Of a stretch of DNA of 64,000 nucleotides, positions 3,184-64,000 are shown in pieces; within the stretch, counting starts at the first letter, position 1; each line of letters opens with the position of its first letter. The position numbers and the translations under genes were made by a program. Source of the DNA: Anaerolineales bacterium (GTDB lineage Bacteria; Chloroflexota; Anaerolineae; Anaerolineales; JABWBV01); NCBI GenBank assembly GCA_035512695.1, contig DATKDL010000227.1, positions 6,941-70,940 on the forward strand. Reading direction: 5' to 3'. The notes under the pieces were generated by a model. That model was not told the DNA's origin and made no database searches. It saw only the letters and a program-made list of their open reading frames with translations.

Positions 3184-3199
3184 TTACACTCCATAAGCG

Positions 3200-3975: not shown

Positions 3976-4917
3976 ATGGCAAAACCCATCGTATTGATCA
4001 CAGACGGCCTGGAAGAAGCCGGGCTGAAGCTCCTGGCCGAGGCCGCCGAGGTCAAAGACTGCACCGGGATTTCGGCGGAGGATCTGCCGGCCGCCCTGGC
4101 CGCTGCGGACGCCGTCATCGTCCGGAGCCGGACGAAGATGACGGCGTCCGTCCTCGAAGCGGCGAGCCGGCTTAAAGTCATCGGCCGGGCCGGGATCGGG
4201 GTCGACTCGATCGATATCGACTCGGCCAGGACCTGCAAGATCGTCGTCGTCAACACCCCGGTCGCGACCACCACGGCGGTCGCCGAGCACGCCCTGGCAC
4301 TGATCCTGGCCCTGGCCCGCCGGATCACGGCCGCCGACGCCTCGATGAAGCAGGGCAAATGGCTCAAGAACGACCTGATGGGCGTGGAGCTGGCCGGACG
4401 GACCCTGGGGATCATCGGGGTCGGCAAAATCGGTCTGGCCGTTGCCCGCCGGGCTTCGCCCTTCCACCTGGAGATCATCGGCTACGATCCATACATGCAG
4501 CCCGAAGCGCTGCGCGCCGCAAACGTCGAACCGGTCGAACTCAACGCGCTCTACGCCCGGGCGGACATCCTCTCGCTGCACGTCCCGCTCACCCCTGAGA
4601 CGCAGGGGATGCTCGACGACGACGCCTTCAAAAAGGTCAAACCCGGCGTACTCGTGGTCTCGACTTCCCGGGGCGAGGTGATCGATGAAGCCGCCCTCCT
4701 CGAAGCCCTGCAAAGCGGCCGGGTGGCAGGCGCAGCACTGGACGTTTTCAGCAAAGAACCGCCCGGGCTGACCCCGCTGGTTGCGCATCCGAACGTGATC
4801 GCCACCCCGCACATCGCAGCGCAGACGGGGGAAGCCCAGGAGCGGGCAGCCGTCGATATCGCAACGGAGGTTTTGAACGCCCTGGGGGATCAGCCGCTTC
4901 GTTGGCGCATCGTGTGA
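3976..4917 (+). CDS. D-isomer-specific 2-hydroxyacid dehydrogenase (short phosphoglycerate dehydrogenase-like, no ACT domain)
   Basis: NAD-binding GIIGVGKIGLAVARR. Catalytic-domain motifs HVPLTPETQGML and ATPHIAAQT. Confidence 0.85.
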   Translation: MAKPIVLITDGLEEAGLKLLAEAAEVKDCTGISAEDLPAALAAADAVIVRSRTKMTASVLEAASRLKVIGRAGIGVDSIDIDSARTCKIVVVNTPVATTTAVAEHALALILALARRITAADASMKQGKWLKNDLMGVELAGRTLGIIGVGKIGLAVARRASPFHLEIIGYDPYMQPEALRAANVEPVELNALYARADILSLHVPLTPETQGMLDDDAFKKVKPGVLVVSTSRGEVIDEAALLEALQSGRVAGAALDVFSKEPPGLTPLVAHPNVIATPHIAAQTGEAQERAAVDIATEVLNALGDQPLRWRIV

Positions 4918-6008
4918 TGAGCGAAACGAAAACCACTCCAACGATCGTCGTCATGCACGGGGATCAGACCGGTGAGGAACTCCTGCTGGATGCGCTGCGG
5001 GTCCTCGAAACCCGGCTGATCCGCCAGCCGCTCGAGTTCCTGCATTTCGATCTCGGCCTGTCTAACCGCCAGTCTACGAAGAACATCGTCGTTCACGAAG
5101 CGGCCGCGGCCGCGGTGCGGACCGGGCTGGCCCTGAAAGCCGCCACGATCACACCGGAGAAAAAGGGCGATGTCGGGTCGCCGAACGCGATCCTGCGCGA
5201 GGAGATAGCCGGAAAGGTGATCCTGCGGACCGGCCGGCGCATCCCAAACATCCGCCCGATGGGCGGCGTCCATGCCCCGATCGCCATCGTGCGCATGGCG
5301 GTCGAGGATGCATATGGGGCGAAAGAGTGGCGTGAAGGCACCGGCACCGCGGAGCGGGCCTACCGGACCTCGGTCATCACCCGTTCCACCTGCAGGGCGG
5401 TGGCCGAATTCTCGTTCCAATATGCCCGGCGGAACCGGGCCCGCGTGTTCGGCGGTCCCAAGTTCACCGTCAGCCCGGTCTACGAGGGGATGTTCAAGGA
5501 AGAGCTGGACGCGGCAGCCGAACGGAATCCGGACGTCCTTTACCAACCGCTCCTGATCGACGCGACCTTCGCCCTCTTGCTTCAGACCAGCGGAGAACCA
5601 CTGGTGATCCCGGCGCTCAACCGCGACGGGGATCTGCTCTCGGACATGGTCCTTCAAATGTACGGCAGCATCGCCGGCAGCGAGAGCCTCGTGCTCGGTT
5701 TCGACGACGACTCCCTGGAAGTCGCCACGGTGATGGCGGAGGCCCCACACGGAACCGCGCCGGCCCTGGAGGGGAAGAACATCGCCAACCCGATGGCCAT
5801 GATCCTGGCGTGCGCAGCCCTGCTCGTCTACGTCCGATCATCTGAGGCGGACCGGGCCTCGCGGGCCATTTACGAGAGCGTCTTCGAAACGCTTTACGAC
5901 GGCGGCGCCACCCCGGATTTGGGCGGTCAGATGACGACCACCGAGTTCACCGACGAGGTGATTCGACGCGTCGCCGCCAAGCTCGAGGTCTGGTCTACAC
6001 TGTCCTGA
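4917..6008 (+). CDS. Isocitrate/isopropylmalate dehydrogenase family protein
   Basis: IVVMHGDQTGEE N-terminus and a GDLLSDMV motif typical of the beta-decarboxylating dehydrogenase family. ATG 4917 overlaps the upstream TGA (TGATG), so this start is preferred over the track start 4902. Confidence 0.8.
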   Translation: MSETKTTPTIVVMHGDQTGEELLLDALRVLETRLIRQPLEFLHFDLGLSNRQSTKNIVVHEAAAAAVRTGLALKAATITPEKKGDVGSPNAILREEIAGKVILRTGRRIPNIRPMGGVHAPIAIVRMAVEDAYGAKEWREGTGTAERAYRTSVITRSTCRAVAEFSFQYARRNRARVFGGPKFTVSPVYEGMFKEELDAAAERNPDVLYQPLLIDATFALLLQTSGEPLVIPALNRDGDLLSDMVLQMYGSIAGSESLVLGFDDDSLEVATVMAEAPHGTAPALEGKNIANPMAMILACAALLVYVRSSEADRASRAIYESVFETLYDGGATPDLGGQMTTTEFTDEVIRRVAAKLEVWSTLS

Positions 6009-9102: not shown

Positions 9103-9116
9103 CCCCACGACAATCC

Positions 9117-9169
9117 CTTAAAACGGGAGCGGCGAGCGCGCGGAGTGCGCTCGCCGCTCCGGTTTTAAG
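9117..9169. terminator. Bidirectional hairpin terminator between convergent genes
   Basis: CTTAAAACGGGAGCGGCGAGCGC / GCGCTCGCCGCTCCGGTTTTAAG: 23-bp stem with 1 mismatch, and A/T runs on both sides. Confidence 0.65.
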
Positions 9170-9175
9170 AGGTGG

Positions 9176-13458: not shown

Positions 13459-13534
13459 CGGGTCGAGATCGCGAAAAACAAGCGGCCCGGCGGGGTATCC
13501 CGCCGGGCCGCTTGTTTTTCGCGATCTCGACCCG
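13459..13534. terminator. Bidirectional 36-bp perfect hairpin filling the whole intergenic gap
   Basis: CGGGTCGAGATCGCGAAAAACAAGCGGCCCGGCGGG, loop GTAT, then the exact reverse complement. It starts 2 nt after one stop codon and ends 1 nt before the convergent ppdK stop. Confidence 0.75.
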
Positions 13535-21376: not shown

Positions 21377-22138
21377 GTGGCGTCTCCAGATATCCCACCA
21401 CTATCCCACATGTTTCCCACGGTATCCCACATCCTGTACGATCTAGGAAACACGCTCCTGTATTTCCACGGGGACCGGGACGTCGTTTTCCGGCAGGCGG
21501 TGGCGGCGGCCGGGCGGGCCGGGGGGCGGTTCGGGCTGGATCCGGACCGGCAGGCGGAACTCACCCGGCGGCTGGCTGCCCGGCTGCTGTCGAACTACGC
21601 CCGGCGCGAGACGGACCTGATCGAGCTCGCGGCCGGGCTGGTTTTTGTCGAGGCAATGGTTTCGATGGGCTTCCCGCCGGATAACCGGGGCCCGGCGGAT
21701 GCGGTGATGTCCGCCTTCTACGCGGTCACGCAGACGCATTGGCGGCCGGTGCGGGGCGCGGAGCAGGCGCTGGCCCTGCTGAAGGAGATGGGGTACCGGC
21801 AGGCCGTGCTTTCCAACGCCGCCCACGATGAAGACGTCCAGGCCCTGGTGGACAAGGCCGGGTTGCGGCCATACCTCGACTTCGTCCTGACTTCGGCGGC
21901 GATCGGCCGCCGGAAGCCGGATCCGCAGCCCTTTCTGCGGGCCGCGGCGGATTGGGGCGTCTCCCCGGCCGTCGTCCTGATGGTCGGCGATATGATGTCC
22001 ATCGACGTCAGGGGCGCGCGCGCGGCTGGCATGGCCGCGGTATGGGTACAAAAATTTTCAAGGGATCCGTCCGGGGAGGTCCCTCCGGACGCAATGATCG
22101 AGACGGTCGTCGAACTGCCGCAGATACTAACAAATTGA
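21377..22138 (+). CDS. HAD family hydrolase
   Basis: Motif I DLGNT, motif II VLSNA, motif IV GDMMSIDVRGARAAG. GTG start. Confidence 0.8.
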   Translation: MASPDIPPLSHMFPTVSHILYDLGNTLLYFHGDRDVVFRQAVAAAGRAGGRFGLDPDRQAELTRRLAARLLSNYARRETDLIELAAGLVFVEAMVSMGFPPDNRGPADAVMSAFYAVTQTHWRPVRGAEQALALLKEMGYRQAVLSNAAHDEDVQALVDKAGLRPYLDFVLTSAAIGRRKPDPQPFLRAAADWGVSPAVVLMVGDMMSIDVRGARAAGMAAVWVQKFSRDPSGEVPPDAMIETVVELPQILTN

Positions 22139-22174
22139 GCCCCTGGGACCTGCGGTTCGTGGGGGTCAATTTTT

Positions 22175-24904
22175 TCAGTTTCTCCTTTTGAACCATTTCT
22201 CGACTTCGACTGCCACGAACACGACCGCGCTGAGCGCCATACAGAGCAGCAGTTCACCCGCGCTCAGGTCCATGGTGCCGAAGATGTCCTGCAGCGGCGT
22301 CCAGTAGATGACGGCTAGCTGCAGGACGAACGTCAGCGCCACCGAACCGACCATCAGCGGGTTGCTGAACAGGCCCAGGGTAAACAGCGATTCGCGCCCG
22401 GACCGGATCACGGTGGCGTGCGCCATCTGCGAGATCGTCAGGGTCGTGAATACGAGCGTGGGCCAGGTCGGCAGATCGATCGCCCAGCCCCAATACCCGA
22501 CTCCCAGCGAAACGGCACCCATCAGCAGCCCGATCCAAAGGATATGCCTGCCCATCCCGCGGGCGAAAATGCTCTCATTCGGCGCATACGGCGGCCGGTG
22601 CATCACGTTTTTCTCGGGCGCTTCGACCGCCAGCGCCAGGCCCGGTAGGCCGTCCGTGACCAGGTTGATCCACAGGATCTGCAGCGCGGTCAGGGGGAGC
22701 GGCATCCCGAAAAACGGGGCGAACAGCATGACGTAGATCTCGGCCGCGTTGCTCGTCATCGTGTACTTGATGAATTTGCGGACGTTGTCGAAGATCGTGC
22801 GGCCTTCCCGGACTGCGTTGACGATCGTCGCAAAGTTGTCGTCCAGGATGATCATATCGGCAGCTTCCTTGGCGACATCGGTGCCGGTGATCCCCATCGC
22901 CACACCGATATCGCTTTTGCGCAGCGCCGGGGCGTCGTTGACGCCGTCTCCCGTCATCGCGGCGATGTGGCCATTTCGCTGCAGCGCCTCCACGATCCGC
23001 AGCTTGTGTTCCGGCGAGACCCGGGCATAGACAGAGACCTTTTCGACGACCGCTTCGAGATCCTGGGGGCTCATCTCTGACAGATCGACGCCGGTGAGCA
23101 CCTCGCCTTCCCCGTCCAGGATCCCCAGGTCCTGGGCGATCCTTTTCGCGGTCAGCGGGTGGTCCCCTGTGATCATGAGCGGGCGGATCCCGGCCGCCCT
23201 GGCCAGTGCGACCGATTCCTTCACTTCGGCGCGGGGCGGGTCCAACATGGCGATCAGGCCGATGAAGGTCAGGTCCTGTTCGAGTTCGGCTTCGTCGACG
23301 CTCTCACCAGGATGGTCGGCGAGCGGCCGGAAGGCCACGCCGAGGACCCGCTGCCCGGCCTGGGCGAGTTCGTCGTTGGAGTCCTGGATGCGGCCGGCGA
23401 CCTCCGCATCCATCGGGATCTCCCCATCGCCGGACCAGACCCGGGTGCAGATTTCAAGCAGACCGTCGACCGAGCCCTTGCAGAAAGCGACGTAATCCGC
23501 ATGGCGCCAGGGGGCGTTCGAAGGATCATCGACCTCGATGGCGACCCGGTGGACGGTCGTCATGCGTTTGCGCTCGGAGGTGAACGGCGCTTCGGCGATG
23601 CGCGGCCAGCGTTTGTCCAATTCGGGCTTCCACAGGCCGATCTGCGCCGCGGCTGCGACGAGGGCGCCTTCCGTCGGATCACCGATCACGCGCAGGTCGC
23701 CGTCATGGTCGGTATCCTCCTCCAGGATCGCATCGTTGGCCAGCGCCGCCGCCTTGATCATCAGCCCCAGGCTGCGCACGGGCGGGGTGACGCCTTTGCG
23801 GAGTTCGGCATCGACCACCGGGAGACCGTCCTCGAGCAGGGTCTCCAGTTCCTGGGTCGAGCCGAGCACGTCCAGGACCGTGACCGTCATGCGGTTCTCG
23901 GTCAGTGTTCCGGTCTTGTCCGAGCAGATCACCGTCACTGAGCCGAGCGTCTCTACCGCCGGGAGTTTGCGGATCAGGGCTTGCCGGCGCAGCATCCGCT
24001 GGGCCCCCAGGGCCAGCGCGATCGTCACGACCGCCGGGAGCCCCTCCGGCACGGCGGCAACGGCCATGGCGACGGCGGTGAGGAACATTTCGGTCGGATC
24101 CTCCCCGCGGAGAATCCCGAGCGAAAAGACCAGGCCGACGATCAGCAAAGCCGCCCATGCGAGCGATTTGCCCAGCTGGTCCATCTTCCGCTGCAGCGGG
24201 GTCTGCTCGCTTTCAACGGCCTGGATCAACTCGGCGATCTTGCCGAGCTCGGTGGCCATCCCCGTCCCGGTAGCCACGGCGACGCCGCGGCCGTAGGTGA
24301 CTGCCGTCCCCAGAAAGACCATGTTTTGCCGGTCGCCCAGGGGAGCACCTGCAGCGACCGTCGTCGCGGCCGTCTTTTCGACCGGCACCGATTCGCCCGT
24401 CAGGGAGGCTTCCTGGATGCGCAGGTTAGCGCTCTCGATCAGCCGTCCGTCCGCCGGGATCGAGTCGCCCGCCTCGAGCAGGATGACGTCGCCTGGGACG
24501 AGTTCTCGGGATGGAAGTTCGAGCACGTGGCCGTCCCGGCGCACCTTGACCACCGGGGTCGCCATCCGTTTCAACGCCGCCATGGCCTGCTCGGCCCGGT
24601 ATTCCTGGACAAAGCCTAAAATGGCATTCAGCACGACGATCGCCAGGATGGCGATCGTGTCTTTCAAATCGCCGAGCAACCCGGAGATCAGGGCAGCCGC
24701 CAGCAGGACGATGACCATCGTCTCGCGAAACTGGCCGAGCAGGATGCGCCAGGGGGAAATGACGCCTCGCTCGACCAGTTCGTTTAGACCGTATTTCGCC
24801 TGCCTGGATCGCACCTCCTGATCCGGCAGGCCGGTTTCCGGTTCGACGCCCAGCTCGGCCACGGTATTTGCAACGGTTTTGGTGTGCCAGTTGTTTTCGC
24901 TCAT
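22175..24904 (-). CDS. Cation-translocating P-type ATPase (P2, Ca2+-type)
   Basis: DKTGTLT phosphorylation site, [20 protein letters not shown], ten-TM layout, and an N-terminal cation-ATPase domain. Confidence 0.95.
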
Positions 24905-34194: not shown

Positions 34195-34929
34195 ATGAAA
34201 ATTTCTCAGACCATGCGCCGTTATGCGGCCGAGATCTACCGCCTGCAGCAGGACCACCCCTACGCGCCGCTTTCGTCGGTGGCGGAGCATGTCGACGCGT
34301 CGCTGCAAGCCGTCTCGCGGATGGTCATCCGGATGGAGCAGGCAGGGTTGGTGACGCGCGAGCCGTACCGGGGGATGCGGCTCACGCCGGAGGGGGAAAG
34401 GGAAGCTATGCCGGCGCTGCGCCGGCACCGGCTGACGGAGGTCTTCCTGGTCAAGGTGATGAACTTCGGCTGGGAGGAGGCCCACGAACTGACCGACCAT
34501 TTCGAGCGCGGGATCGACGAGACCCTGGAGGACCGGATCGACGAACTGACCGGGCGCCCGACCCGCTGCCCACACGGGGAGGCGATCCCGTCGAAGGACG
34601 GCGTCATGCCGGTGGTCAACGATACGGCGCTCGTCAACCTTCAGCCGGGGGAGGCCGGGCACATCAGCCGGGTCCGGACGCACGACCCCGACAAGCTGCG
34701 CTACCTGGCGGCGGAGGGGCTGGTCCCGGGGACCGGGTTCAAGGTCGTCGGCCGGGCGCCGTTCAACGGGCCGCTGCGGGTGCTGGTGGACAGCAGGGAA
34801 TATGTCTTAGGGCCGGAGCTTTCGGCCTGGATCTGGGTGGAGCGGCTGGACGGGGAGATCGACCCGAGTTTGTGCAACCGGACGGGGTGCCCGCTACCGA
34901 AGGCGACGCATTTATATCTGAAAAAGTAG
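34195..34929 (+). CDS. DtxR/MntR-family metal-dependent transcriptional regulator with FeoA/SH3-like C-terminal domain
   Basis: N-terminal wHTH (YAAEIYRLQQDHPYAPLSSVAEHVDASLQAVSRMVIRMEQAGLV), metal-site region RRHRLTEVFL, and C-terminal GEAGHISRV...GLVPGTGFKVV. Confidence 0.85.
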   Translation: MKISQTMRRYAAEIYRLQQDHPYAPLSSVAEHVDASLQAVSRMVIRMEQAGLVTREPYRGMRLTPEGEREAMPALRRHRLTEVFLVKVMNFGWEEAHELTDHFERGIDETLEDRIDELTGRPTRCPHGEAIPSKDGVMPVVNDTALVNLQPGEAGHISRVRTHDPDKLRYLAAEGLVPGTGFKVVGRAPFNGPLRVLVDSREYVLGPELSAWIWVERLDGEIDPSLCNRTGCPLPKATHLYLKK

Positions 34930-34964
34930 ACCAACCGGGGCCGGCCCCGTATGGTCTACTTTTT
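34921..34964. terminator. Bidirectional terminator between the DtxR-family gene and the loader gene
   Basis: AAAAAGTAGACCA / TGGTCTACTTTTT outer stem with an inner GGGGCCGGCCCC palindrome. Spans both stop codons. Confidence 0.65.
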
Positions 34965-36433
34965 CATTGCTTCTTCTTGCCCCCCCGATACGGCGGCACC
35001 GTCAGCGCGTAGATCCGCGCCACCCGCTGGTCCAGCATCCGGCTGGCGATGTAGGGTTCGTTCTTGTAAAGGTTCTCCAGCGTGTCCGCCGTGGTCACCA
35101 CCGTCGGGAGCTCGCGCACGTGCCGGTGGTTGAACAGCTGGTTCAGCTTCTCCCGCACCCAGTTCGTCATCGACTGCCTACCCAGGTCGTCCAGCAGCAG
35201 CAAGGGGACGTCCTTGAAGCTGTCGAACTGGCGGTCATAGCGGCTGCGGTTTTCCGGGGCAAACGTCGCCCGCAGTTCGTCCAGCAGGTCGGGGATGCTG
35301 ACGAGCAGCGGCGGGTATCCCAGCCCGGCGCGGTAGTTGCCGATCGCGGCGGCCAGGTGGGTTTTCCCGGTCCCGTTCGCGCCCATCAGGATCAGCCAGC
35401 CGTGCGGGCTCTCGGCGAACTGGCGGGCGGACTTGAAGGCCATGGCGAGCGAGCGGACTTCGTCCGCCGGGAGGCCTTCCCCGCCCCGCTCCTCGAAGTT
35501 CCCGAAGGTCAGTTGCGCGAAATGCGGCAGGGAGGACAGCTCGTGGTGCCCGGTGTCGTCAGCCGGGCGGCGGTAATCCGGGGACTGGATCGTGACGCGG
35601 GTGACCAGCTCCGGGTCCTGCAACCGGGAGCGCAGGCGCGGCTCGACCTCGTCGAGCGGGAGGTTGGTGGTCACCACCAGGGGGAGCTTGTTTGTGTAGC
35701 GGTAGTTGAGGATCTGGAATAGCTTCTCCCCGGCCCATTCGGTCGCGTTCTGGGTGCCGAAATCGTCCAGGACGAGCAGCGGGGCGCGGCGGACGGCCTC
35801 AAATCGCTCTTCGAAGGTCTCCTCGGTGGAGCTGTAGGCGAAACGGAGCTGGTCGAGCAGGTCCGGGACGGTGAGGAAAAGGGCCGGGACGCCGAGCGAG
35901 GCAGATTCGTTGGTGATCGCGGCCGCCAGGTGGGTCTTCCCGCAGCCGTAGCCGCCCTGCAGGACCAGCCAGCCGTCCTGGCTCTGCGCGAACTGGCGAG
36001 CCTGGTTGAAAGCCCGTTCGAGCGAATCGGCCTGGTAAGGGCCAATCCCGATCCGGCCGCGCGGCTGGAAGGCCTCAAAGGTCAGGTTCTCGAGCCGGTT
36101 GAGGTGGCTGAGGGCGAAGAGCTTTTCGCGCGCCCGCGCTTCGATCTCCGGTTGGCGGCACGAGCAAACGTGCATCCGGCCGAACTCGGGATGGCCGACC
36201 GGGACGTCGTAGCTGATGTAGCCGATCCCGCGGCAGTGCGGGCAGTCCGGGTCGCCCAGGCGGCCGGGCAGGTCCGCGGGCGACCGCGGCGCCGGGGTTT
36301 CGTCCGCGGCCGGTTTATCTTTCGACAAAGATTTATCTCTCGATAAAGATTTATCTCTCGATAAATTCCGAGAACTCGCCTTCGATATATTTTCGGCCGC
36401 TTGTTTCAGCGGCTTGTCGATCTTCCCGGTCAT
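34964..36433 (-). CDS. DnaC/DnaI-like helicase loader homologue with zinc-ribbon N-terminus and two tandem AAA+ modules
   Basis: CPHC..(x23)..CSC cluster. Module 1: GGYGCGKTHLAAA, LLVLDDFG, VVTTN. Module 2: GANGTGKTHLAAA, LLLLDDLG, VVTTA. ATG 36433 overlaps the upstream gene by 83 nt; the alternative TTG at 36328 would remove the overlap. Confidence 0.8.
   Translation of the reverse strand: MTGKIDKPLKQAAENISKASSRNLSRDKSLSRDKSLSKDKPAADETPAPRSPADLPGRLGDPDCPHCRGIGYISYDVPVGHPEFGRMHVCSCRQPEIEARAREKLFALSHLNRLENLTFEAFQPRGRIGIGPYQADSLERAFNQARQFAQSQDGWLVLQGGYGCGKTHLAAAITNESASLGVPALFLTVPDLLDQLRFAYSSTEETFEERFEAVRRAPLLVLDDFGTQNATEWAGEKLFQILNYRYTNKLPLVVTTNLPLDEVEPRLRSRLQDPELVTRVTIQSPDYRRPADDTGHHELSSLPHFAQLTFGNFEERGGEGLPADEVRSLAMAFKSARQFAESPHGWLILMGANGTGKTHLAAAIGNYRAGLGYPPLLVSIPDLLDELRATFAPENRSRYDRQFDSFKDVPLLLLDDLGRQSMTNWVREKLNQLFNHRHVRELPTVVTTADTLENLYKNEPYIASRMLDQRVARIYALTVPPYRGGKKKQ
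36313..36366. repeat. 3 x 18-bp tandem repeat across the dnaD-like stop / loader 5' end
   Basis: GTTTATCTTTCGACAAAG, ATTTATCTCTCGATAAAG, ATTTATCTCTCGATAAAT. It encodes SRDKSL repeats in the loader frame. Confidence 0.75.
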
Positions 36434-56160: not shown

Positions 56161-57066
56161 TTGAAAGGAATTATTCTCGCCGGCGGTAAAGGCACCCGCC
56201 TATACCCGATCACGATCAGCGTCAGCAAGCAGCTCCAGCCGGTCTATGACAAGCCGATGGTGTACTACCCGCTTTCGATGCTGATGCTGGCCGGGATCCG
56301 TGAGATCCTCGTGATCAGCGATCCGGCCGGGCTGCCGCTGTTCAAAAGCCTGCTCCAGGACGGGTCGCAGTGGGGGCTGTCGTTCAATTATGCCGAGCAG
56401 GCGGAGCCGCGCGGGCTGGCGGACGCTTTCATCGTCGGGCGCGACTTTGTCGGTTCCGACACCGTAGCCCTGATCCTGGGCGACAACATATTCTACGGCC
56501 ACGGGCTTCCGGCCCAGCTGCGCCAGGCTGCCGAGATTGCGGACGGTGGGCTGATCTTCGCCTACCCGGTCCGCGACCCGCAGCGGTATGGCGTGATCGA
56601 GTTCGACGAGACCGGAATGGCGCTGAGCATCGAAGAGAAGCCGGAGCGGCCGCGATCGAGCTTCGCCGTTCCCGGCTTGTATTTCTACGACAACGAAGTC
56701 CTCGACATCGCCGCCAACCTCGCGCCTTCCGCTCGCGGGGAACTCGAGATCACGGACGTGAACCGGGTCTATCTCGCCCGGCAGAAACTGCGGGTCGAGG
56801 TCCTCGGCCGGGGAGTGGCATGGCTGGATGCGGGCACGCATGAGTCGCTGCTTGAATCTTCCCAGTTCGTTCACGCCCTCCAGGCCCGGCAGGGAATGAT
56901 GATCTCCTGTCCGGAGGAAATCGCTTACCAGATGGGCTACATTTCCACCGACCAGGTCCGTCGAATCGCCGAAGGGATGAAGGGGAACGAATACGGGCAA
57001 TACTTGATGCGCCTGATCGACGATCGCGGCGACAAGATCGCATCTCAAAACCGGACAGGGATATAA
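56161..57066 (+). CDS. rfbA: Glucose-1-phosphate thymidylyltransferase
   Basis: [25 protein letters not shown], and EITDVN motifs. TTG 56161 with GAGG 7 nt upstream. The track start 56107 lies inside the hairpin. Confidence 0.9.
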
Positions 57067-57091
57067 GAAGCTGGCGAACACCTGGAAACAT

Positions 57092-58846
57092 TTGAGCCGT
57101 CCGGCTCTGGATAAACTGGGGCTGCTTTCGCGACGGCAGGCCCTGGGCTGGGGGATGCTCGCCTGCGCGGCGCTGATCGGGCTGTGGACCATTCGTTGGG
57201 GCCTGTCCGACGTCGAAGGGGACGCCCTGGTCACCGGTTTCCACATGAGCAAAGGCAGGCTCCTGTACCGGGACATTTTTTCACATCATTTTCCCTTTAT
57301 CTATTTCTGGTCGACGGCTTCTGTCGCGCTGTTTGGAAAATCGCTCTACCTGCACCGCCTCACCGTCTGGCTTTTTCAGCTGGTCGTTTTCGGCGTCGTC
57401 ATGGTTTTGAGCAGGCAGGAACTCACGATCGGTATCACGAGCCTGATCTGGAGCATTCTGCGGCACCTGTACCTGAATAACATCCTCGTCTACCAGGCCT
57501 TCAGCGCACCCGCTGTGATAGGGATCGGCGCGCTGGTGCTGTACATCCTGCTCCAGCGCGATCAGACCGGGTTCCGCCATTACCTGGCGATCGGCCTGCT
57601 GGCCTCGGTCAGCGTGCTTTCGGACCCGCTCACGATCTACCCGGTCGGTGTTGCGCTGGTGCTGCTGTGGCTGCGGTCACCGCGTATCGGTTTTCAGACA
57701 TCCCTGGTCGCCGGCGCATGTGCGGTCCTGTTTCTCGGCTACCTGCTGCTGACCGGAGCACTCACCGATTTCCTTTCGGACGCCTTGCGTTTCAATTCGG
57801 AAATCTATGCCCGGTATAACAACAATTTCGCCTCGCCCTGGCGTTTCTCAAGATTTTCGGAACAGCTCCTCAGCGGGTTCGGGATCACGAACAGGCAGTT
57901 CCTCAACCTCGATCCTTTCCGGGAGATCACGACCCAGTACACGGATTTTGACCGCTGGCTGTTCACCGGTTTTCTCTACCGCATCGGCGCGCTTTCGGGC
58001 ATCCTGCTGTTCCTGGTCCGGAAGGAAACCTTCGCCGCCTTTTTCCTGTACACTTACTGCGCGGGCGCCCTGGCGATCGAGGTCTGGGGCCACCGCGCCG
58101 TGAATTTTGTCCCGCTGGCGCTGTTCATCGCGGCGGGGATGATTTCCCAGGAATGGTGGCCCGCCGAGGATGACCGCCGCCGGGCGATCGTCCGGAATGC
58201 CCTCACCTTCGCGATCGGATCGATGTTCGTATGGTTGGGGTTTCGGGTGATCGTCTTCACGCACGGCGGATTCGACGAGTATGCTTATATCAAACCGATC
58301 ATCGCATATCGGAACGAGGCCCGGGAACTGGTCGACCTCGCCTGCGGCCAGGACGGGGTGCAGCTCATCTTTTACCCGAACCGGATCTATCCCTATTTTT
58401 TTGCGGAGATGGAGGCGGTCGCAGGCTATTATTACATGTGGCCATGGGTGGCGGAAATTGCGCTTGACGAAGTCGTCGAGGCGTTGGAACGGCCTGGCGT
58501 GCTGGTCATCGCCCACCGGCAATTGAACGGATTGGTTTTCCAGCAATACGACACCCGGGAATACTTGAAACCGCTGGACGATTACTTGATGAACAACTAT
58601 ATCGCGGTCGATGACGGTCTTTATATCTCTCCGGCGCTGGCTGCCCGGTGCGCTGCGCAGGGCCATTCCAGCCCCCCTCTCAGGCAGATGCGCGACACGG
58701 GTACAGACGTCACGCAGCCGGGTGAAAATTTCTGGAAAAATGGGGTGCAGGCGGGGGCTTCGCCCCCGCCTGCACCCCATTTTTCCAGTATTCACGACGA
58801 CAGCCTGTGTACTTGCTGGGCGCAGATCAAAGTTGTGAGCGTATGA
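57092..58846 (+). CDS. Hypothetical polytopic membrane protein inserted between rfbA and rfbD (possible GT-C-like)
   Basis: About 11 TM helices and a soluble ~150-aa C-terminus. TTG start at 57092 (alternative ATG 57155). The last ~35 codons read through hairpin 58732-58788. Confidence 0.55.
   Translation: MSRPALDKLGLLSRRQALGWGMLACAALIGLWTIRWGLSDVEGDALVTGFHMSKGRLLYRDIFSHHFPFIYFWSTASVALFGKSLYLHRLTVWLFQLVVFGVVMVLSRQELTIGITSLIWSILRHLYLNNILVYQAFSAPAVIGIGALVLYILLQRDQTGFRHYLAIGLLASVSVLSDPLTIYPVGVALVLLWLRSPRIGFQTSLVAGACAVLFLGYLLLTGALTDFLSDALRFNSEIYARYNNNFASPWRFSRFSEQLLSGFGITNRQFLNLDPFREITTQYTDFDRWLFTGFLYRIGALSGILLFLVRKETFAAFFLYTYCAGALAIEVWGHRAVNFVPLALFIAAGMISQEWWPAEDDRRRAIVRNALTFAIGSMFVWLGFRVIVFTHGGFDEYAYIKPIIAYRNEARELVDLACGQDGVQLIFYPNRIYPYFFAEMEAVAGYYYMWPWVAEIALDEVVEALERPGVLVIAHRQLNGLVFQQYDTREYLKPLDDYLMNNYIAVDDGLYISPALAARCAAQGHSSPPLRQMRDTGTDVTQPGENFWKNGVQAGASPPPAPHFSSIHDDSLCTCWAQIKVVSV
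58732..58788 (+). repeat. 26/27-bp perfect hairpin inside the 3' end of the 57092 gene, upstream of rfbD
   Basis: CTGGAAAAATGGGGTGCAGGCGGGGGC TTC GCCCCCGCCTGCACCCCATTTTTCCAG. Confidence 0.7.
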
Positions 58847-59724
58847 AGATCCTCATCATCGGCAAAAACGGACAGCTGGGTTGGGAACTCGAGCGCTCGC
58901 TCGCCGTGCTTGGCGAGGTCGTCGCCGTTGCCCGGCCGGAGATCGATCTGTCGAACCCGGAGAGCACCGCCGGATGGGTCCGCCGCGTCGAGCCCGATGT
59001 CGTTGTGAACGCCGCCGCATACACGGATGTCGATGGAGCCGAGCGGGAAACAGGCGCGGCCCGGGCAGTAAACGCCCGCGCACCCGGGGTCCTGGCCGCC
59101 GAAACCGAACGGCTGGGGTCCGCCCTGATCCACTACTCGACCGATTTCGTCTTCGACGGCGAAAAACGCGAACCTTACCGCGAAACCGATCCGACCCGGC
59201 CGCTGGGAGTCTACGGACGCACCAAGCTGGAAGGCGAACAGGCGGTGGCTGCGGCCGGCGGGGCCGGTCTGATCTTCCGCACCGCCTGGGTTTACAGCCT
59301 GCGCCGGCCCAGCTTCGTCACCAGGGTGCTGGAATGGGCCCGCCGGTCCCCCGAACTGCGGATCGTGACCGACCAGACCGGCAGCCCGACCTGGTGCCGG
59401 ACGCTCGCCCAAGCGACCGCCCGGGTCATCGCCATGGGCGGCCCGGATCCGGCCGGGTTCCTGCGCGAGCGGCACGGCCTCTATCACGTGGCCTGCGATG
59501 GCGCCGCCAGCCGGGCCGAATGGGCCCGGGCGATCCTGCGCGGGGACCCGCACCCCGAGGAGCAGCTGGCGAAGGTCGTCATCCCCGCGTTGACCTCCGA
59601 TTTCCCGTCGCCGGCGATGCGCCCGGCTTATTCGGTCCTGGACTGCACCAAGTTCGCCGATGTCTTCGGCTTCCGGCTCCCGCCCTGGGAGGAAGCCCTG
59701 GGGCTGGCGATGGAGGCGGGATGA
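58843..59724 (+). CDS. rfbD: dTDP-4-dehydrorhamnose reductase
   Basis: MKILIIGKNGQLG, NAAAYTDVDGAE, STDFVFDG, and DQTGSPT motifs. Confidence 0.9.
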   Translation: MKILIIGKNGQLGWELERSLAVLGEVVAVARPEIDLSNPESTAGWVRRVEPDVVVNAAAYTDVDGAERETGAARAVNARAPGVLAAETERLGSALIHYSTDFVFDGEKREPYRETDPTRPLGVYGRTKLEGEQAVAAAGGAGLIFRTAWVYSLRRPSFVTRVLEWARRSPELRIVTDQTGSPTWCRTLAQATARVIAMGGPDPAGFLRERHGLYHVACDGAASRAEWARAILRGDPHPEEQLAKVVIPALTSDFPSPAMRPAYSVLDCTKFADVFGFRLPPWEEALGLAMEAG

Positions 59725-60833
59725 TCGCCAGGGACGAGTTGATCGTCGGGGACAGGTTGGTCGTCTCCGTGGTCGGCGCGCGGCCGAACTTCGTCAAGAT
59801 GGCGCCGGTCATTGCCGCGCTCGACCGGCGCGGCATCGCACAGGTCACGGTCCACACCGGGCAGCATTACGACGCACGCATGTCGGCCGTCTTCTTCGAT
59901 GAGCTCGGGATGCCCGAGCCGGGCATCTCCCTTGGCGTCGGCTCCGGGTCGCACGCCGAACAGACCGCACGGGTCATGCTGGCCTTCGAGCCTGTCCTGG
60001 TCGAGCACCGACCCGACCTCGTCGTCGTAGCCGGAGACGTCAACTCGACCCTGGCCTGCGCGCTGACCGCAACCAAGCTGGACATCCCCGTCGCCCATGT
60101 GGAATCAGGGCTGCGCTCCTTCGACCGGACGATGCCGGAAGAAGTCAACCGTATTCTGACCGACCACATCTCCGATCTGCTCTTTGTCACCGAGCCATCC
60201 GGCGCGGCCAACCTCCGGAAGGAGGGCATCGATCCGGACAAAATTCATTTCACCGGAAACACGATGATCGATTCGCTCGACCGGCACCTCCCGGCCGCCC
60301 TGGCCCGGGCACCCTGGGCCGCCTACGGCCTCGAGCCGGGCAGCTACGCCGTCCTGACCCTCCACCGGCCCGCCAACGTCGATGAGGAGACGAAGCTGCG
60401 CGAGCTGCTGGCGGCGGTCGCCGAGATCGGCGCACATACGCCGGTCCTGTTCCCGGCGCACCCGCGCACGCAAGAGCGGATGGATGGGTGGGGATTGGCC
60501 CAGGCGGGCGTCCGGCTGGTAGAGCCGCTGGGGTATCTGGATTTCCTGGGTCTGATGGCCCGCGCCCGCCTCGTCCTGACCGATTCCGGCGGGGTCCAGG
60601 AGGAGACGACGGCCCTCGGCGTGCCCTGCCTCACCATCCGGGACAACACCGAACGGCCCGTGACGATCGAGCAGGGCAGCAACCAGCTGGCCGGGACGAC
60701 CGGAGCCGGTCTGCTGGCGGCGTATGCCGGACTAAAAGCCGCCCCGGATCCGGCCCAGCGGCCGCACCTGTGGGACGGCCACGCCGCAGAGCGGATCGCG
60801 GACGTACTGACGGACTGGACGAGGGGCAGGTGA
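59721..60833 (+). CDS. wecB: UDP-N-acetylglucosamine 2-epimerase (non-hydrolysing)
   Basis: VVGARPNFVKMAPV, HTGQHYD, HVESGLRSFDRTMPEEVNR, and DSGGVQEE motifs. ATGA overlap with rfbD. The track ORF 58881-60833 is a same-frame extension. Confidence 0.9.
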   Translation: MIARDELIVGDRLVVSVVGARPNFVKMAPVIAALDRRGIAQVTVHTGQHYDARMSAVFFDELGMPEPGISLGVGSGSHAEQTARVMLAFEPVLVEHRPDLVVVAGDVNSTLACALTATKLDIPVAHVESGLRSFDRTMPEEVNRILTDHISDLLFVTEPSGAANLRKEGIDPDKIHFTGNTMIDSLDRHLPAALARAPWAAYGLEPGSYAVLTLHRPANVDEETKLRELLAAVAEIGAHTPVLFPAHPRTQERMDGWGLAQAGVRLVEPLGYLDFLGLMARARLVLTDSGGVQEETTALGVPCLTIRDNTERPVTIEQGSNQLAGTTGAGLLAAYAGLKAAPDPAQRPHLWDGHAAERIADVLTDWTRGR

Positions 60834-61777
60834 ACGCCGTACTCATCACCGGCGGGAACGGGTTTATCGGTTCGCATCTGGTCGATGCGCTGGCTGCGGC
60901 CGGCCGGCGGGTCGTCTCCTACGATCTTTACCCGCGCCCGTTTGAACCTCCCCCGGATAACGCCGTATTCATCCAGGGCAACCTGGACGACTCGGAGCTC
61001 GTCCGCCGGACGATCGTCGACGAAGGCGTCGAGGTCGTCGTCCACGCCGCCTGGGCGTCGATCCACGAAACATCGCTGAAGGACCCGGCTGCCGACGTCG
61101 AGGCCAACCTGGTCCCGACGCTGCGGCTGCTGGATGCCTGCCGGGAGGCCGGTGTGCGGCGCCTGGTCTTCCTGTCATCCGGCGGGCAGGTCTATGGAGT
61201 CCCGGAACGCAATCCCATCCGGGAGGATCACCCGGCGAACCCGATCAGCGCATACGGGGCGGCCAAGCTGGCGGCGGAGAAGTACGTCGGAATGTACGAA
61301 CGGTTGTACGGTTTGGAGAGCGTCATCCTGCGGCCCTCGGTGCCTTATGGGCCGCGCCAGAACCCGCGCCGCCGGCAAGGGGCGGCGGCCGTCTTCATCC
61401 ACCGGGCGCTCCACCGTCTCCCGGTCGAGATCTGGGGCGACGGAGAAGTGCAGCGAGATTACTTTTATATCGAAGACCTGAGCCGGGCTTTGGCTGCTGC
61501 GGTCGACTCGCCCGCTGCAGCCGGCGGCGTGTTCAACCTGGGCGGGCGAGAGACGATCTCGCTGAACGGCCTGGCCGCCGCCATCGAGCGGGCGCTGGAG
61601 CTGAAAATCGAGATCCAATATAAAGAAGCCCGCCGCTTTGACGTGCCGGCGCTGGCGCTGGATTGGTCGGCGGCGCAGCGGGTCCTGGGCTGGTCCCCCG
61701 AAGTCGAGCTGGAGGACGGGATCCGCCGAACGGCCGCCTGGCTGAAGAAATGGTTCGATGAACGAGATGGGAAGTGA
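60830..61777 (+). CDS. NAD-dependent epimerase/dehydratase (SDR, UDP-glucose 4-epimerase-like)
   Basis: VLITGGNGFIGSHLV and YGAAKLAAEKY catalytic motif. GTG 60830 overlaps the wecB TGA (GTGA). Confidence 0.85.
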   Translation: MNAVLITGGNGFIGSHLVDALAAAGRRVVSYDLYPRPFEPPPDNAVFIQGNLDDSELVRRTIVDEGVEVVVHAAWASIHETSLKDPAADVEANLVPTLRLLDACREAGVRRLVFLSSGGQVYGVPERNPIREDHPANPISAYGAAKLAAEKYVGMYERLYGLESVILRPSVPYGPRQNPRRRQGAAAVFIHRALHRLPVEIWGDGEVQRDYFYIEDLSRALAAAVDSPAAAGGVFNLGGRETISLNGLAAAIERALELKIEIQYKEARRFDVPALALDWSAAQRVLGWSPEVELEDGIRRTAAWLKKWFDERDGK

Positions 61778-61889
61778 CCTGGCCGCGGGGCTCGCCCGAG
61801 AGGACTTCACCGCCGTAACCGAGGCGCACACCGCCGGGCACCTCGGCAGCGGGGACGTGCGGGTGCTTGCCACACCGATGATGATCCTT
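61758..61889 (+). pseudogene. Truncated hotdog-fold thioesterase (first ~44 codons only)
   Basis: FTAVTEAHTAGHLGSGDVRVLATPMMIL matches the family N-terminus (VTxxxTAxxxGSGxxxVLATPxMIxLME). Similarity stops at about 61889, and the rest of track ORF 61758-62117 is antisense to the next gene. Confidence 0.5.
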
Positions 61890-61944
61890 AAATTCGGAGG
61901 ACGGGCGATATTGGCCGCGGTCTGGTCCGTCGAGATTGACTTCT

Positions 61945-64000
61945 TCACGCCTGCCAGACCGGATCAAAACCCGGGAGTTCGAACGTCCCGGCGGACGACT
62001 CGACCAGCAGGTACGGCAGCCAGGCCACCCCGAAAAGCTCGACCAGGATGTCCTTCTTGTAAGGTGCGACCGGGATCTCGTCGACGTGCTCGAGCGCTTC
62101 GCTCCAGTGCGACTTGATCGACGCGATCAGTTCGTCCAATTCCTGCCGGGTCTCGACGATCTCCTCCTGCAGCCGTTTGATCGTATCGAGCGACTCGTCG
62201 ACATCGGCCTTGGCCTGGGAGGTCATGCGGCGCTTCGACAGCGAGGTGGTCAGGGTTCGGCGGCGCTTGTTGAACAGGCTGAGCAGGTTCTCTGCATGCG
62301 TGCCGTATTCCTCCATCCTGCGCTGGGCGACCTCATCTTTATTCTCCTCGAGTTCCCGCTCCTCCCGTGATAGCTTGTCGGAGAGCGACTTTATCCGGGT
62401 CTCCAGCGTCCGCGTCTTTGTGGCCAGTTCCTTGTCGCGCAGCCTGGCGGCTTCCTCGGTCGACATCCGCCGGAACTCGGCCTCCGAGACATCCGGGCCG
62501 GCGTGGATCTTCAAAGTCGGGTTGGTGCGGACGGTGACGGTCCCGGCGCGGTAAATCCATTCGGAGAAATCCGTATCCAGTGATTTCATCAACCGCTCGT
62601 CGGTGAGCGGTGCGGTGAGTTCGCCGAAGGTGGACGTCGGAAGCGGACCCGGATCCAGCCCGCGCGGCTCGATCCGGGCGCAGAGATGTTCCTCCCAGCG
62701 GACGATCCCGCGGGCATCCGGTTCGACGACGACGCCGGTCCAGGTCTTTTCCATATTCAGGTTGTAGGTCCGATTGACGAAGCGGACGTTGGCCTGCGCC
62801 AGCAGGACGGGGCGGTAGATCAGACCGGCGCTCCGTGCATCCGCGGGCAGCTCCCTTCCGGCCTTCCTGGCGGAATCGCCGAGGGTCAGTTTGTGCGGGA
62901 GGAAGAATTCGTTGACGCGGGCGGGGAGGGCGGGTTTCGTGGAAGTGCCGGGTGCCGGGTGCCTGGTGCCTGGTGATGTTTCGGCCGGTTTAGATGGTCG
63001 GTCATGGGAGGCGGTCGGGGCGTCCGACACGGACGCTGGTTGTGCGGTCACCTGGAAAAGCGCGGAACCCGGATGGGGGCCGGCTGGTTGATCCGTGGAC
63101 GAGGTCCAACCAAGATCCGATGTACCTATCCTTCCCGTCCTTGTCCCGACTCCGGCCAGAACGTTGAGGGCCGGGATCTGGGTCCGGGTGAGCGGGCCGG
63201 CCATGTAGTTCATCGCCCAACGGGTCTGGAAGATGTGGGGCTGTTTTTCGTGGACATTGTGAAGCAGGAACCGGCGTTTCCCCAAACCGGAGATCAGGCG
63301 CTCAACGGTCCCCCGGTCGAGCGAGCCGGCGGCCGCGCCCTGCAGGCCGTCGAGCAGCCGCTGCTTGTCGCGATCGGCCTGGAGACGACCGATGAACCAG
63401 GTGCCGGCATTGGTCAGCGCCTTGTAGTCCAGATCGGCCGGGTTCTGGGTGACGAGCAGCATCGCGACCCCGAAGGCCCGGGCCTGTTTGAGCAGCCGCA
63501 GCATGGGCGGCTTGGAGGGCGGGTTGGCGGTCGGCGGAAGGTAGCCGAAGATCTCGTCAAAATAGACGATCGCCCGCAGCGATGAGGTCCCGCTCTGGCC
63601 GCGCATCCAGCTTTCGACGGCGCTGTAAAGCAAGGTGATGAAGAACATCCGCTCCGCATCGGTCAGGTGGGCCACGTAGAATACGCTGTGGCGCGGTCTG
63701 CCGTCCTGGGTGTACAACAGGGTCTGAATATCGAGCGGGGCGCCCGAGGTCCAGACCTGGAAAGTCGGGGCGGCCAGGATGTTATTCAGCAGCATGGCCA
63801 GGTTGAACCGGTCCCCATCCGGGAAGAAGCGGCCGACCTCAAAGACACCTAGCTTGTCAAACGGCGGGGTCTGGACCTGCAGGATCAGCTCCCCCATGTC
63901 CAGGTCGGCGCCGCGGCTCCAGGCGTGCTCGAAAATATTGGCGAGCAGGATATGCTCGCGCGAGCGCAGCGGGTCGATGTCCTGCAGCCCGACTAGCCCG
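61945..64000 (-). CDS. HerA/DUF853-like P-loop NTPase with long C-terminal linker and coiled coil (5' end outside window)
   Basis: AIVYFDEIFGYLPP (Walker B-like hhhhDE) and AFGVAMLLVTQNPADLDYKALTNAGTWFIGRLQ resemble the HerA/YjgR-type core. The reading frame stays open upstream of Met 63897 to the window edge (…GLQDIDPLRSREHILLANIFEHAW…). The C-terminal ~180 aa are heptad-rich (RLRDKELATKTRTLETRIKSLSDKLSREERELEENKDE...). Confidence 0.7.
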   Translation of the reverse strand, partial: GLVGLQDIDPLRSREHILLANIFEHAWSRGADLDMGELILQVQTPPFDKLGVFEVGRFFPDGDRFNLAMLLNNILAAPTFQVWTSGAPLDIQTLLYTQDGRPRHSVFYVAHLTDAERMFFITLLYSAVESWMRGQSGTSSLRAIVYFDEIFGYLPPTANPPSKPPMLRLLKQARAFGVAMLLVTQNPADLDYKALTNAGTWFIGRLQADRDKQRLLDGLQGAAAGSLDRGTVERLISGLGKRRFLLHNVHEKQPHIFQTRWAMNYMAGPLTRTQIPALNVLAGVGTRTGRIGTSDLGWTSSTDQPAGPHPGSALFQVTAQPASVSDAPTASHDRPSKPAETSPGTRHPAPGTSTKPALPARVNEFFLPHKLTLGDSARKAGRELPADARSAGLIYRPVLLAQANVRFVNRTYNLNMEKTWTGVVVEPDARGIVRWEEHLCARIEPRGLDPGPLPTSTFGELTAPLTDERLMKSLDTDFSEWIYRAGTVTVRTNPTLKIHAGPDVSEAEFRRMSTEEAARLRDKELATKTRTLETRIKSLSDKLSREERELEENKDEVAQRRMEEYGTHAENLLSLFNKRRRTLTTSLSKRRMTSQAKADVDESLDTIKRLQEEIVETRQELDELIASIKSHWSEALEHVDEIPVAPYKKDILVELFGVAWLPYLLVESSAGTFELPGFDPVWQA

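Follow-up and report, generated by a model that had tools for sequence, protein, structure and literature searches.

Remnants of deletion-derived pseudogenes occur at the variable ends of surface-polysaccharide clusters of the O-antigen or capsule type. The thioesterase FlK employs Thr42 as nucleophile (Ser is tolerated at this position), together with the conserved Glu50 and the catalytic His76 (PMC2903362). The 64-kb stretch of DNA analyzed here, referred to as the window, very probably carries a pseudogene of such a FlK-type thioesterase, which on comparison with related loci would have arisen by a deletion of ~1.0 kb (Table 1). It is situated directly behind an epimerase gene, the last intact gene of a polysaccharide biosynthesis locus that also contains genes for a GDP-mannose dehydratase and PMT_2 and GT2 glycosyltransferases, rmlCBAD-like genes and wecB. 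The epimerase protein was matched exactly on Logan contig L001 and as P0122/HUF39919.1, and orthologues with 81-83% amino acid identity to the window are present in all related contigs.

Table 1. Features at the distal end of the polysaccharide locus (window coordinates).
Feature	Position	Strand	Remarks
NAD-dependent sugar epimerase/dehydratase, 315 aa, GTG start, HUF39919.1	60830..61777	+	Pfam PF01370 E=1.2e-51
5' stump of FlK-type hotdog thioesterase, probable pseudogene remnant	61767..61888	+	41 codons; alternative upstream ATG 61758
Left breakpoint of the probable ~1.0-kb deletion	61888..61889	.	end of the blastn and tblastx alignments with L002
56-nt spacer between breakpoint and ATPase stop; right breakpoint probably somewhere inside	61889..61944	.	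no significant similarity to L151 (982-nt stretch) or L002
Non-homologous read-through of the stump frame, antisense to the ATPase gene, not a gene	61889..62117	+	no homologue
DUF87/HerA-like P-loop ATPase with coiled-coil tail, C-terminal 684 of 862 codons, HUF39920.1	61945..64000	-	P0002

The thioesterase stump and its read-through frame

An ORF check of the window confirmed a 119-codon frame at 61758-62117, which overlaps the epimerase stop codon (61775-61777), as the preliminary description of this DNA had stated, by 20 nt when counted from 61758 and by 11 nt from ATG 61767, the position at which the start of the intact homologue aligns. This homologue, a protein of 128 aa (P0001), matches PF22636 over profile positions 1-102 (E=2.6e-33, 114.6 bits) and aligns with residues 38-130 of FlK (E=8e-14), such that its Ser36, Glu44 and His70 are placed on FlK Thr42, Glu50 and His76. 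Residues 4-44 of the window frame are 78% identical to residues 1-41 of P0001, and the match stops at ...MMIL, where residue 44 of the window, the end of homology, corresponds to Leu41 of P0001; from there the window continues with the unrelated KFGGRAIL.... The abrupt truncation of a hotdog thioesterase gene after ~44 codons, as described before, is therefore reproduced by the protein alignment with P0001 as well as by the alignment with the DNA of contig L002 (below), and the family length of ~130 aa given at that time agrees with the 128 aa of P0001 and the 139 aa of FlK. The position of the FlK nucleophile is kept in the stump as Thr39 (...VLATPMMIL; Ser36 in P0001), and the counterparts of P0001 Glu44 and His70 are missing. 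Because the retained piece is short, its Pfam match to FlK (PF22636; E=0.15; residues 20-46, profile positions 1-26 of 103) scores 12.7 bits and stays below the threshold of 27 bits, and a complete domain is not present. Judged from what is retained, the stump would be a remnant unable to form the hotdog fold or an active site, and thus presumably non-functional. For the intact relatives, a putative glycan-modifying role is suggested by their place in the locus.

Past residue 44, where the sole database match stops, no homologue was found for the ORF, nor was a continuation of the thioesterase protein found in other frames past 61888. The apparent 119-codon ORF exists by chance, in that the stump frame reads on along the strand antisense to the ATPase gene. 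The NCBI protein accessions of the epimerase and the ATPase are consecutive (HUF39919.1, HUF39920.1), so that no protein is annotated between the two.

Breakpoint and ancestral order of the locus tail

The comparison set comprised metagenome contigs from the same Anaerolineales clade (L002, L003 and L143-L155), and these establish by synteny the ancestral order epimerase, thioesterase (128 aa), FkbM methyltransferase (262 aa) and, on the opposite strand, the ATPase. In L002 the epimerase (82% amino acid identity by tblastx) is followed by the thioesterase P0001, the start codon of which is located 1 nt past the epimerase stop, and then by a PF05050 methyltransferase. This intact gene occupies the same locus, its DNA is colinear with the window over 61222-61888 and its product shows the 78% identity over 41 codons, which marks it as the orthologue of the stump. 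The DNA alignment with L002 is ungapped, has 76% identity and ends exactly at 61888, so that the end of the thioesterase match, previously placed at ~61889, represents a genuine breakpoint; the ATPase stop codon (61945-61947) follows after 56 nt, close to the 55 nt reported earlier. No colinear continuation with L002 reached significance past 61888, where the best placement gives 21 of 56 matches (background 14.6 +/- 3.4; maximum 28 elsewhere). A resumption of the thioesterase after a 6-nt in-frame gap, as hinted at by MAFFT, was rejected, since it reaches only these 21 of 56 matches (z ~1.9) and unrelated offsets score higher.

The other flank is provided by L151, positions 834-3722 of which match window 58843-61767 (76.9% identity), while positions 4699-5710 match window 61941-62952 (83.1%). 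Between the epimerase and ATPase stops L151 has 982 nt, which contain a 3' remnant of the thioesterase and the 262-aa methyltransferase, compared with 167 nt in the window. L153 has the same layout, and in both contigs the ATPase lies 16 nt past the methyltransferase stop in the same orientation as in the window. Both flanks are thus colinear with a relative that keeps the intervening DNA, the arrangement by which a deletion-derived pseudogene is recognized. The 56-nt spacer itself has no significant similarity to the 982-nt stretch of L151, and its derivation from the methyltransferase 3' end or from the L151 spacer was discarded, as with each of three scoring schemes the local alignments did not surpass those of shuffled sequences. 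By eye, one frame of the spacer, reading IRRTGDIGRGLVRRD up to a stop codon, is weakly like the methyltransferase C-terminus (...LRERGYLIVIGFTETLAYMR, likewise followed by a stop), a likeness that is not demonstrable. The last ~16 nt of the spacer (GAGATTGACTTCT) also resemble by eye the spacer at the ATPase stop of L003/L143 (GAAATCGTTTTTC).

Altogether, five allelic states of the locus tail were found. State B (L151/152/153) lacks the 5' part of the thioesterase, in state C (L154/155) the thioesterase is precisely absent, and in state E (L003, L143-L148) the thioesterase and the methyltransferase are both gone; L149 and L150 share the state-E epimerase, with the L149 contig reaching only 22 ATPase codons and the L150 contig ending before the ATPase. 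Relative to L151, L143 is missing 959 nt in a clean deletion with flanks of 95.4% identity. In the epimerase tree the window forms a basal lineage with 82-84% amino acid identity to all others, while 98% identity is seen between B and E, so that the deletion in the window is a separate event, independent of those of its sister lineages. A junction common to the L003 lineage, and hence ancient, was considered and rejected, since L003/L143 derive from an L151-like state by the different 959-nt deletion and bear the left scar of L151, not that of the window. The preliminary description had named homologues matching the C-terminal part of ORF 61758-62117, and related genomes with the same arrangement and no intact gene anywhere, as observations against its reading. 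No such homologue was found; adjacency of epimerase and ATPase was found in relatives, but it arose there via independent deletions, and one relative does hold the intact thioesterase.

The pre-deletion sequence was reconstructed from relatives 75-83% identical, and no contig with the intact thioesterase arrangement was found from the window's own lineage. A scan of GTDB species representatives with the epimerase gave best matches of 61% (Victivallales) and 57% (Pyrinomonadaceae), with no thioesterase near any of them, while a metagenome scan with the intact thioesterase yielded 56 loci of at most 59% identity, none adjoining an orthologous epimerase or ATPase. In the outgroup L156, which has a 67%-identical epimerase, the contig ends 37 nt past the gene.

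Origin of the junction

Taken together, the comparison would be explained as follows. The ancestor of the clade carried a FlK-type thioesterase (128 aa) and a FkbM methyltransferase (262 aa) at the distal end of the surface-polysaccharide locus, with the thioesterase start abutting or overlapping the epimerase stop and the convergent, conserved DUF87/HerA-like ATPase following the methyltransferase. A single deletion of ~1.0 kb would then have started at codon 42 of the thioesterase and taken all, or almost all, of the DNA through the methyltransferase gene, so that 41 thioesterase codons remained, separated from the ATPase stop by the 56-nt spacer. In the ancestor the stops of epimerase and ATPase lay ~1186 nt apart, a composite value made up of the 982 nt of L151 and ~204 nt that are present in L002 but missing from L151, and the 167 nt of the window therefore correspond to a net loss of ~1.0 kb. 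With L002 as query, tblastx gave no match for the 3' part of the thioesterase or for the methyltransferase anywhere in positions 1-64000 of the window, which spans 64 kb of the 72.9-kb source contig. We infer that the DNA was lost in one event and that its right end lies within the spacer, but a more complex event, such as a deletion with filler DNA or two successive deletions, is conceivable.

The preliminary description had instead read the junction as one of insertion or rearrangement and had proposed that everything to the right may be island DNA, i.e. that a foreign block starting with the ATPase was inserted into the thioesterase, the 3' part of which would reside at the far end of the island. 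The abrupt truncation and the lack of a terminator hairpin between the convergent 3' ends would fit such an insertion, as would the fact that the window ends within the ATPase gene, so that the far side is out of view. However, the DNA to the right, which in the case of an island should be absent from the site in relatives, is present there: position and orientation of the ATPase are shared by L151 and L153, which keep the methyltransferase, and by L143-L148 and L003. Furthermore, an insertion would not remove the methyltransferase. The first 2 kb right of the junction are all ATPase gene, with no integrase gene among them, the 64-kb window contains no tRNA, and no flanking repeats are seen, with only short two-copy chance matches and nothing meaningful in 59000-64000. 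A compositional difference from the flanking chromosome is not found either, since GC right of the junction is 0.56-0.73 (100-nt windows) against a window mean of 0.64, and the GC3 of the ATPase gene (0.82) is like that of its neighbours.

The ATPase itself was correctly described as a convergent gene of more than 680 codons, with 684 codons inside the window and 862 aa in the whole protein (P0002), which is 100% identical to the window ATPase across the whole query; the gene was computed to run to ~64533, past the window end, and its N-terminus is matched by Pfam DUF87 and FtsK_SpoIIIE. More than 8000 full-length homologues of 820-865 aa (55-60% identity) cover 99-100% of the query, indicating that the C-terminus is intact. 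The family is widespread in Chloroflexota, from which the named homologues come, is of uniform length and occurs in ordinary, varied chromosomal contexts. On this sequence evidence, the right-hand ATPase gene is intact and a native neighbour of the glycan locus. The insertion is thus extremely improbable, and comparison with relatives, as proposed in the preliminary description, has yielded an intact thioesterase behind the epimerase (L002) and an ATPase that was not inserted. By synteny with L151 and L153 the junction is a deletion scar, and because the ATPase is the native neighbour there, the missing 3' two-thirds of the thioesterase are not expected beyond 64 kb.

The junction does lack a hairpin, unlike most convergent gene pairs in the window, as had been noticed before. 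Near-perfect hairpins are present in four of the five other pairs (9114-9173, 13467-13526, 22123-22182 and 34916-34967; -24 to -60 kcal/mol), the fifth being an overlapping pair with only an imperfect fold of -20 kcal/mol. At the junction the fold is imperfect and does not surpass that of shuffled sequences (z=-1.0 and -0.2), and no Rfam family reaches threshold, the only match being a chance one of 15 bits where the gathering score is 54. This absence had been taken to fit a recent junction, but the ancestral methyltransferase/ATPase pair of L151 is separated by a T-rich spacer of 16 nt that leaves no room for a hairpin either, and the argument is thus void. The recency as such is supported by the stump, which has no frameshift or stop and differs from the intact homologue in L002 mostly by synonymous substitutions (pN 0.158, pS 0.718). 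Since this coding-like pattern is kept, the deletion is probably recent when measured against the divergence from the sampled relatives.

The same open frame and synonymous bias, together with a start that, like that of the intact gene, overlaps the epimerase stop, could also mean that the 41-codon stump or the 119-codon ORF has been kept for use, either as a translationally coupled small protein or as a shared 3' untranslated or terminator region of the epimerase and ATPase transcripts. However, a coding-like signature is exactly what is expected of a recently truncated gene, and the differences from L002 arose for the most part before the gene was truncated. Moreover, the 41 residues span 26 of the 103 hotdog profile positions without the catalytic His, and the extension past 61888 has no homologue. 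The segment is deleted in the sister states B, C and E and is therefore dispensable, so that a retained function carries very little probability.

Finally, as the source is a metagenome-assembled genome (MAG; NCBI 'MAG TPA ... Anaerolineales bacterium'), the contig might be a chimera of two loci joined within or close to 61889-61944, and the Logan contig L001 indeed breaks off at 61931, shortly ahead of the ATPase stop, as at an assembly-graph branch. By contrast, L001, an independent assembly from run SRR8556377 with 5 mismatches over 6055 nt, agrees with the junction sequence as far as 61931, repeating the left breakpoint and 43 nt past it base for base, so that the breakpoint is no error peculiar to the MAG assembly. 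L001 stops 14 nt short of the ATPase stop, and the final join to the ATPase is given by the MAG assembly and the synteny of the relatives. In all related contigs reaching that far the ATPase is the expected neighbour, within ~1.2 kb, and a false join that recreates the native neighbour in its native orientation would be improbable. A chimera is thus very unlikely, and deletion remains the preferred explanation.

Erosion of the locus tail and comparison with known systems

At least four apparently independent deletions are found among the six sampled lineages of the clade, one of which segregates between contigs 95% identical. It is possible, if rather doubtful, that the 1.2-kb tail of the glycan locus (thioesterase and FkbM methyltransferase) represents a recurrent deletion hot spot. 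If so, the losses could stem not from neutral decay but from selection, exerted for instance by phages or grazers, to switch off a methyl or acyl decoration of the surface polysaccharide. The verdict reached here is that of a real but ordinary deletion-derived pseudogene, i.e. ordinary gene decay, which matters little except for a correct annotation: the stump is to be labelled a pseudogene remnant, no protein should be called from ORF 61758-62117, and the right-hand DNA is no island. The comparison of the contigs also provides a small case in which accessory genes at the edge of a polysaccharide locus were lost step by step and independently within an uncultured lineage of Chloroflexota, and this may interest students of surface-glycan microdiversity in metagenomes.

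Compared with FlK of Streptomyces cattleya, a fluoroacetyl-CoA thioesterase (PF22636; PDB 3kuv/3kv7), the stump, an orthologue of the first 41 residues of the FlK-type protein P0001, has lost the central helix and the beta-sheet as well as the counterparts of Glu50 and His76. With genomic island junctions, which result from integration targeted to a tRNA or another gene and are accompanied by attachment-site repeats and an integrase, it shares the abrupt break of a gene and the unrelated sequence beyond, whereas the DNA past the breakpoint is here the ancestral neighbour, and DNA is missing, not added. In contrast to the ends of O-antigen or capsule-type clusters, no insertion sequences, repeats or recombination signals are seen at the breakpoints, and the hosts are uncultured Anaerolineales represented by metagenomes only, so that no link to a glycan structure or serotype is possible. 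The likeness to these cluster ends lies in the arrangement, with a truncated accessory gene at the edge of a glycan locus, conserved flanks and a variable tail.

The truncated thioesterase gene and its breakpoint

A search of a large protein database with the thioesterase ORF returned a single match, a 128-aa "predicted thioesterase" (P0001) encoded on metagenome contig L002, which carries the full FlK-type domain (PF22636, E = 2.6e-33). In the ORF itself, Pfam detects FlK only below threshold (PF22636, E = 0.15), with residues 20–46 corresponding to profile positions 1–26 of 103. BLASTP aligns ORF residues 4–44 with P0001 residues 1–41 at 78% identity, the match ending at MMIL/IMIL. L002 is syntenic, leading from the epimerase (82% amino acid identity, tblastx) through the thioesterase to an FkbM-family methyltransferase (PF05050), and its DNA aligns with window 61222–61888 without gaps at 76% identity, ending exactly at 61888. 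The comparison with a relative bearing an intact thioesterase after the epimerase, as proposed in the preliminary description, is thereby provided, and the abrupt end of the match reported there is borne out at both the DNA and the protein level, as are the ORF from 61758 overlapping the epimerase stop and the convergent gene beyond it.

Features of the window at the thioesterase breakpoint, in the glycan locus and between convergent genes
Feature	Position	Strand	Remarks
Inverted repeat between convergent genes	9114–9173		long, nearly perfect, A-runs and T-runs alongside
Inverted repeat between convergent genes	13467–13526		as above; perfect 28-bp stem
Inverted repeat between convergent genes	22123–22182		long, nearly perfect, A-runs and T-runs alongside
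Inverted repeat between convergent genes	34916–34967		long, nearly perfect, A-runs and T-runs alongside
584-aa polytopic membrane protein	57003–58842 (gene 57092–58846)	+	between rmlA and rmlD
NAD-dependent epimerase	60830–61777		glycan locus
Thioesterase ORF	61758–62117	+	second ATG at 61767; start region overlaps epimerase stop
DUF87/HerA-like P-loop ATPase	61945–64000, on to ~64533 beyond the window	−	862 aa, C-terminal 684 codons within the window

A MAFFT hint that homology resumes past 61888 after a small in-frame gap was rejected, the best colinear offset giving 21/56 matches (background 14.6 ± 3.4; unrelated offsets up to 28/56). No protein continuation was found in other reading frames beyond the breakpoint, and the rest of the 119-codon ORF past the stump, which is antisense to the ATPase gene, had no homologue in the protein database search, so that no homologous C-termini match this remainder. 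The epimerase and ATPase proteins are identical to NCBI HUF39919.1 and HUF39920.1, entries "MAG TPA ... [Anaerolineales bacterium]" from a 72,921-bp contig, and since these accessions are consecutive, no protein is annotated between them. The independently assembled Logan contig L001 (run SRR8556377), with five mismatches to the window in 6 kb, repeats the breakpoint and the following 43 nt, and then stops at 61931. The ATPase stop codon lies 14 nt further on, and the contig end may reflect an assembly-graph branch (strain-level variation at this junction in the sample) or low coverage.

P0001 matches solved FlK structures (E = 8e-14), such that its Ser36, Glu44 and His70 align with Thr42, Glu50 and His76 of FlK. 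The stump keeps only the Thr (ORF residue 39); having lost the His together with the central helix and the sheet, it is predicted to be unable to act as a thioesterase.

The epimerase–ATPase interval in relatives

Same-clade contigs were reached via the closest epimerase and ATPase homologues and sorted by tblastn and blastn, which resolved five states of the interval. In state A (L002), the epimerase is followed by the intact thioesterase, the methyltransferase and the contig end. State B (L151, L152 and L153, of which L152 ends before the ATPase) has a 10-nt scar, the 3' third of the thioesterase (P0001 residues ~72–128, the 5' part being short by about 204 nt), a 262-aa methyltransferase, a 16-nt T-rich spacer and the convergent ATPase. 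In state C (L154, L155) the methyltransferase follows the epimerase 5 nt on, the thioesterase being precisely absent. State D, represented by the window and by L001 (only to 61931), retains the 5' 41 thioesterase codons, followed by 56 nt and the ATPase, while in state E (L003, which is L145, together with L143, L144 and L146–L148) 31–33 nt separate epimerase and ATPase. L149 and L150 carry a state-E epimerase, but L149 reaches only 22 ATPase codons and L150 ends before the ATPase.

L151 aligns with the window on both sides of the affected region (834–3722 with window 58843–61767, 76.9% identity; 4699–5710 with 61941–62952, 83.1%). The ancestral order was therefore epimerase, thioesterase, FkbM methyltransferase and, on the opposite strand, the ATPase as a native neighbour. 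The stop-to-stop distance of the composite ancestor is ~1186 nt, the sum of the 982 nt present in L151 and the roughly 204 nt by which L151 is shorter than L002, compared with 167 nt in the window, so that about 1.0 kb was lost here.

The truncation had been taken to mark a probable insertion or rearrangement junction, with everything to the right possibly being inserted (island) DNA. The insertion or island reading is not supported, since the relatives have the ATPase at the same place and in the same orientation, DNA was lost rather than added, and the ATPase belongs to a widespread family without an island-cargo profile. More than 8000 database proteins of 820–865 aa match it at 55–60% identity over 99–100% of the query, so that its C-terminus is intact and the family widespread; wherever a source is named, it is Chloroflexota or Anaerolineales. 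Relatives at 59% identity have unrelated, housekeeping-type surroundings (e.g. aconitase, peptidase M32, a CBS-domain protein), neighbourhoods that do not fit an island cargo gene. The protein has its P-loop at the N-terminus, followed by a low-complexity linker rich in Pro, Thr and Ser (~62900–63150) and a C-terminal coiled coil; its best PDB match is a HerA central domain (E = 3e-7, ~110 residues), and the searches turned up neither a characterised family member nor a closely related solved structure. Very probably, the thioesterase stump is a pseudogene of an ordinary kind, produced by deletion where the polysaccharide gene cluster has its variable end.

Junction sequence, independence and age of the losses

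Near-perfect stem-loops (−24 to −60 kcal/mol) are present at four of the five other convergent gene pairs of the window, the fifth pair overlapping and giving only an imperfect fold. These inverted repeats look like bidirectional intrinsic terminators. Across the thioesterase/ATPase junction the fold is no better than that of shuffled sequence and no terminator pattern was found, so that the missing hairpin noted in the preliminary description, unlike the situation at most other pairs, is confirmed. In alignments to the relatives' intervening DNA, the 56-nt spacer (61889–61944) matched none of the ancestral sequences compared, and therefore the right breakpoint is placed only within 61889–61944; the last ~16 nt of the spacer resemble, by eye only, the spacer beside the ATPase stop in state E. 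A deletion with filler DNA, or a two-step event, instead of a simple deletion, is possible. The 64-kb window contains no tRNA; at the junction no Rfam match reached threshold, and no meaningful repeats were found in 59000–64000.

At the DNA level L143 (state E) is 95.4% identical to L151 (state B), from which it differs by one clean 959-nt deletion (L151 3733–4691, versus L143 10949–10959) spanning the methyltransferase and the thioesterase 3' remnant. In both, the epimerase stop is followed by the common scar GAGAAA[A/G]GGCGCGC. Presence or absence of the segment is a deletion polymorphism segregating in a natural Anaerolineales population. L143 and L151 come from related ENA assemblies, and further contigs of both states from JGI metagenomes. 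The epimerase proteins of states B and E are 98% identical, and that of the window, at 82–84% identity to every other lineage, forms a basal branch. Because the window keeps the 5' part of the thioesterase that is lost in B and E, its deletion represents a separate event. At least four independent events have thus eroded the 1.2-kb tail: the one that left the scar in B, the deletion in E, the loss of the thioesterase in C and the deletion in the window. The idea that the junction is common to L003, and hence ancient, was dropped, the L003/L143-type state being a different deletion with the L151 scar.

Between stump and L002, pN is 0.158 and pS 0.718, where the neighbouring epimerase gives 0.105 and 0.566, and the stump has neither frameshift nor stop. 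This coding-like pattern indicates that most divergence arose while the gene was intact; the window deletion would then be recent compared with the divergence from the relatives sampled, a reading that with 40 codons is qualitative only.

The surrounding glycan locus

The window contig has a high GC content (64%), and its surface-polysaccharide locus spans 47–61.8 kb, with genes for GDP-mannose dehydratase, two PMT_2 proteins, a GT2 glycosyltransferase, a GSDH-PKD protein, rmlC, rmlB, rmlA, the 584-aa membrane protein, rmlD, wecB and the NAD-dependent epimerase. The membrane protein (~6–7 hydrophobic segments in a Kyte-Doolittle scan) matches no Pfam family, and its gene is lower in GC than the flanks (58.8% versus 63.5–68.1%) and missing from L143, L144 and L151, in which 10–32 nt separate rmlA from rmlD; the gene was probably gained in this lineage or lost in the others. 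Among GTDB species representatives, the nearest epimerase homologues are not from Chloroflexota (Victivallales, 61%; Pyrinomonadaceae, 57% and 54%), which suggests either patchy, transfer-prone glycan-locus genes or a clade absent from the representative set.

A mildly interesting by-product is that sister lineages have lost the thioesterase/methyltransferase tail repeatedly and independently. The window pseudogene itself is a further example of a familiar type of event.
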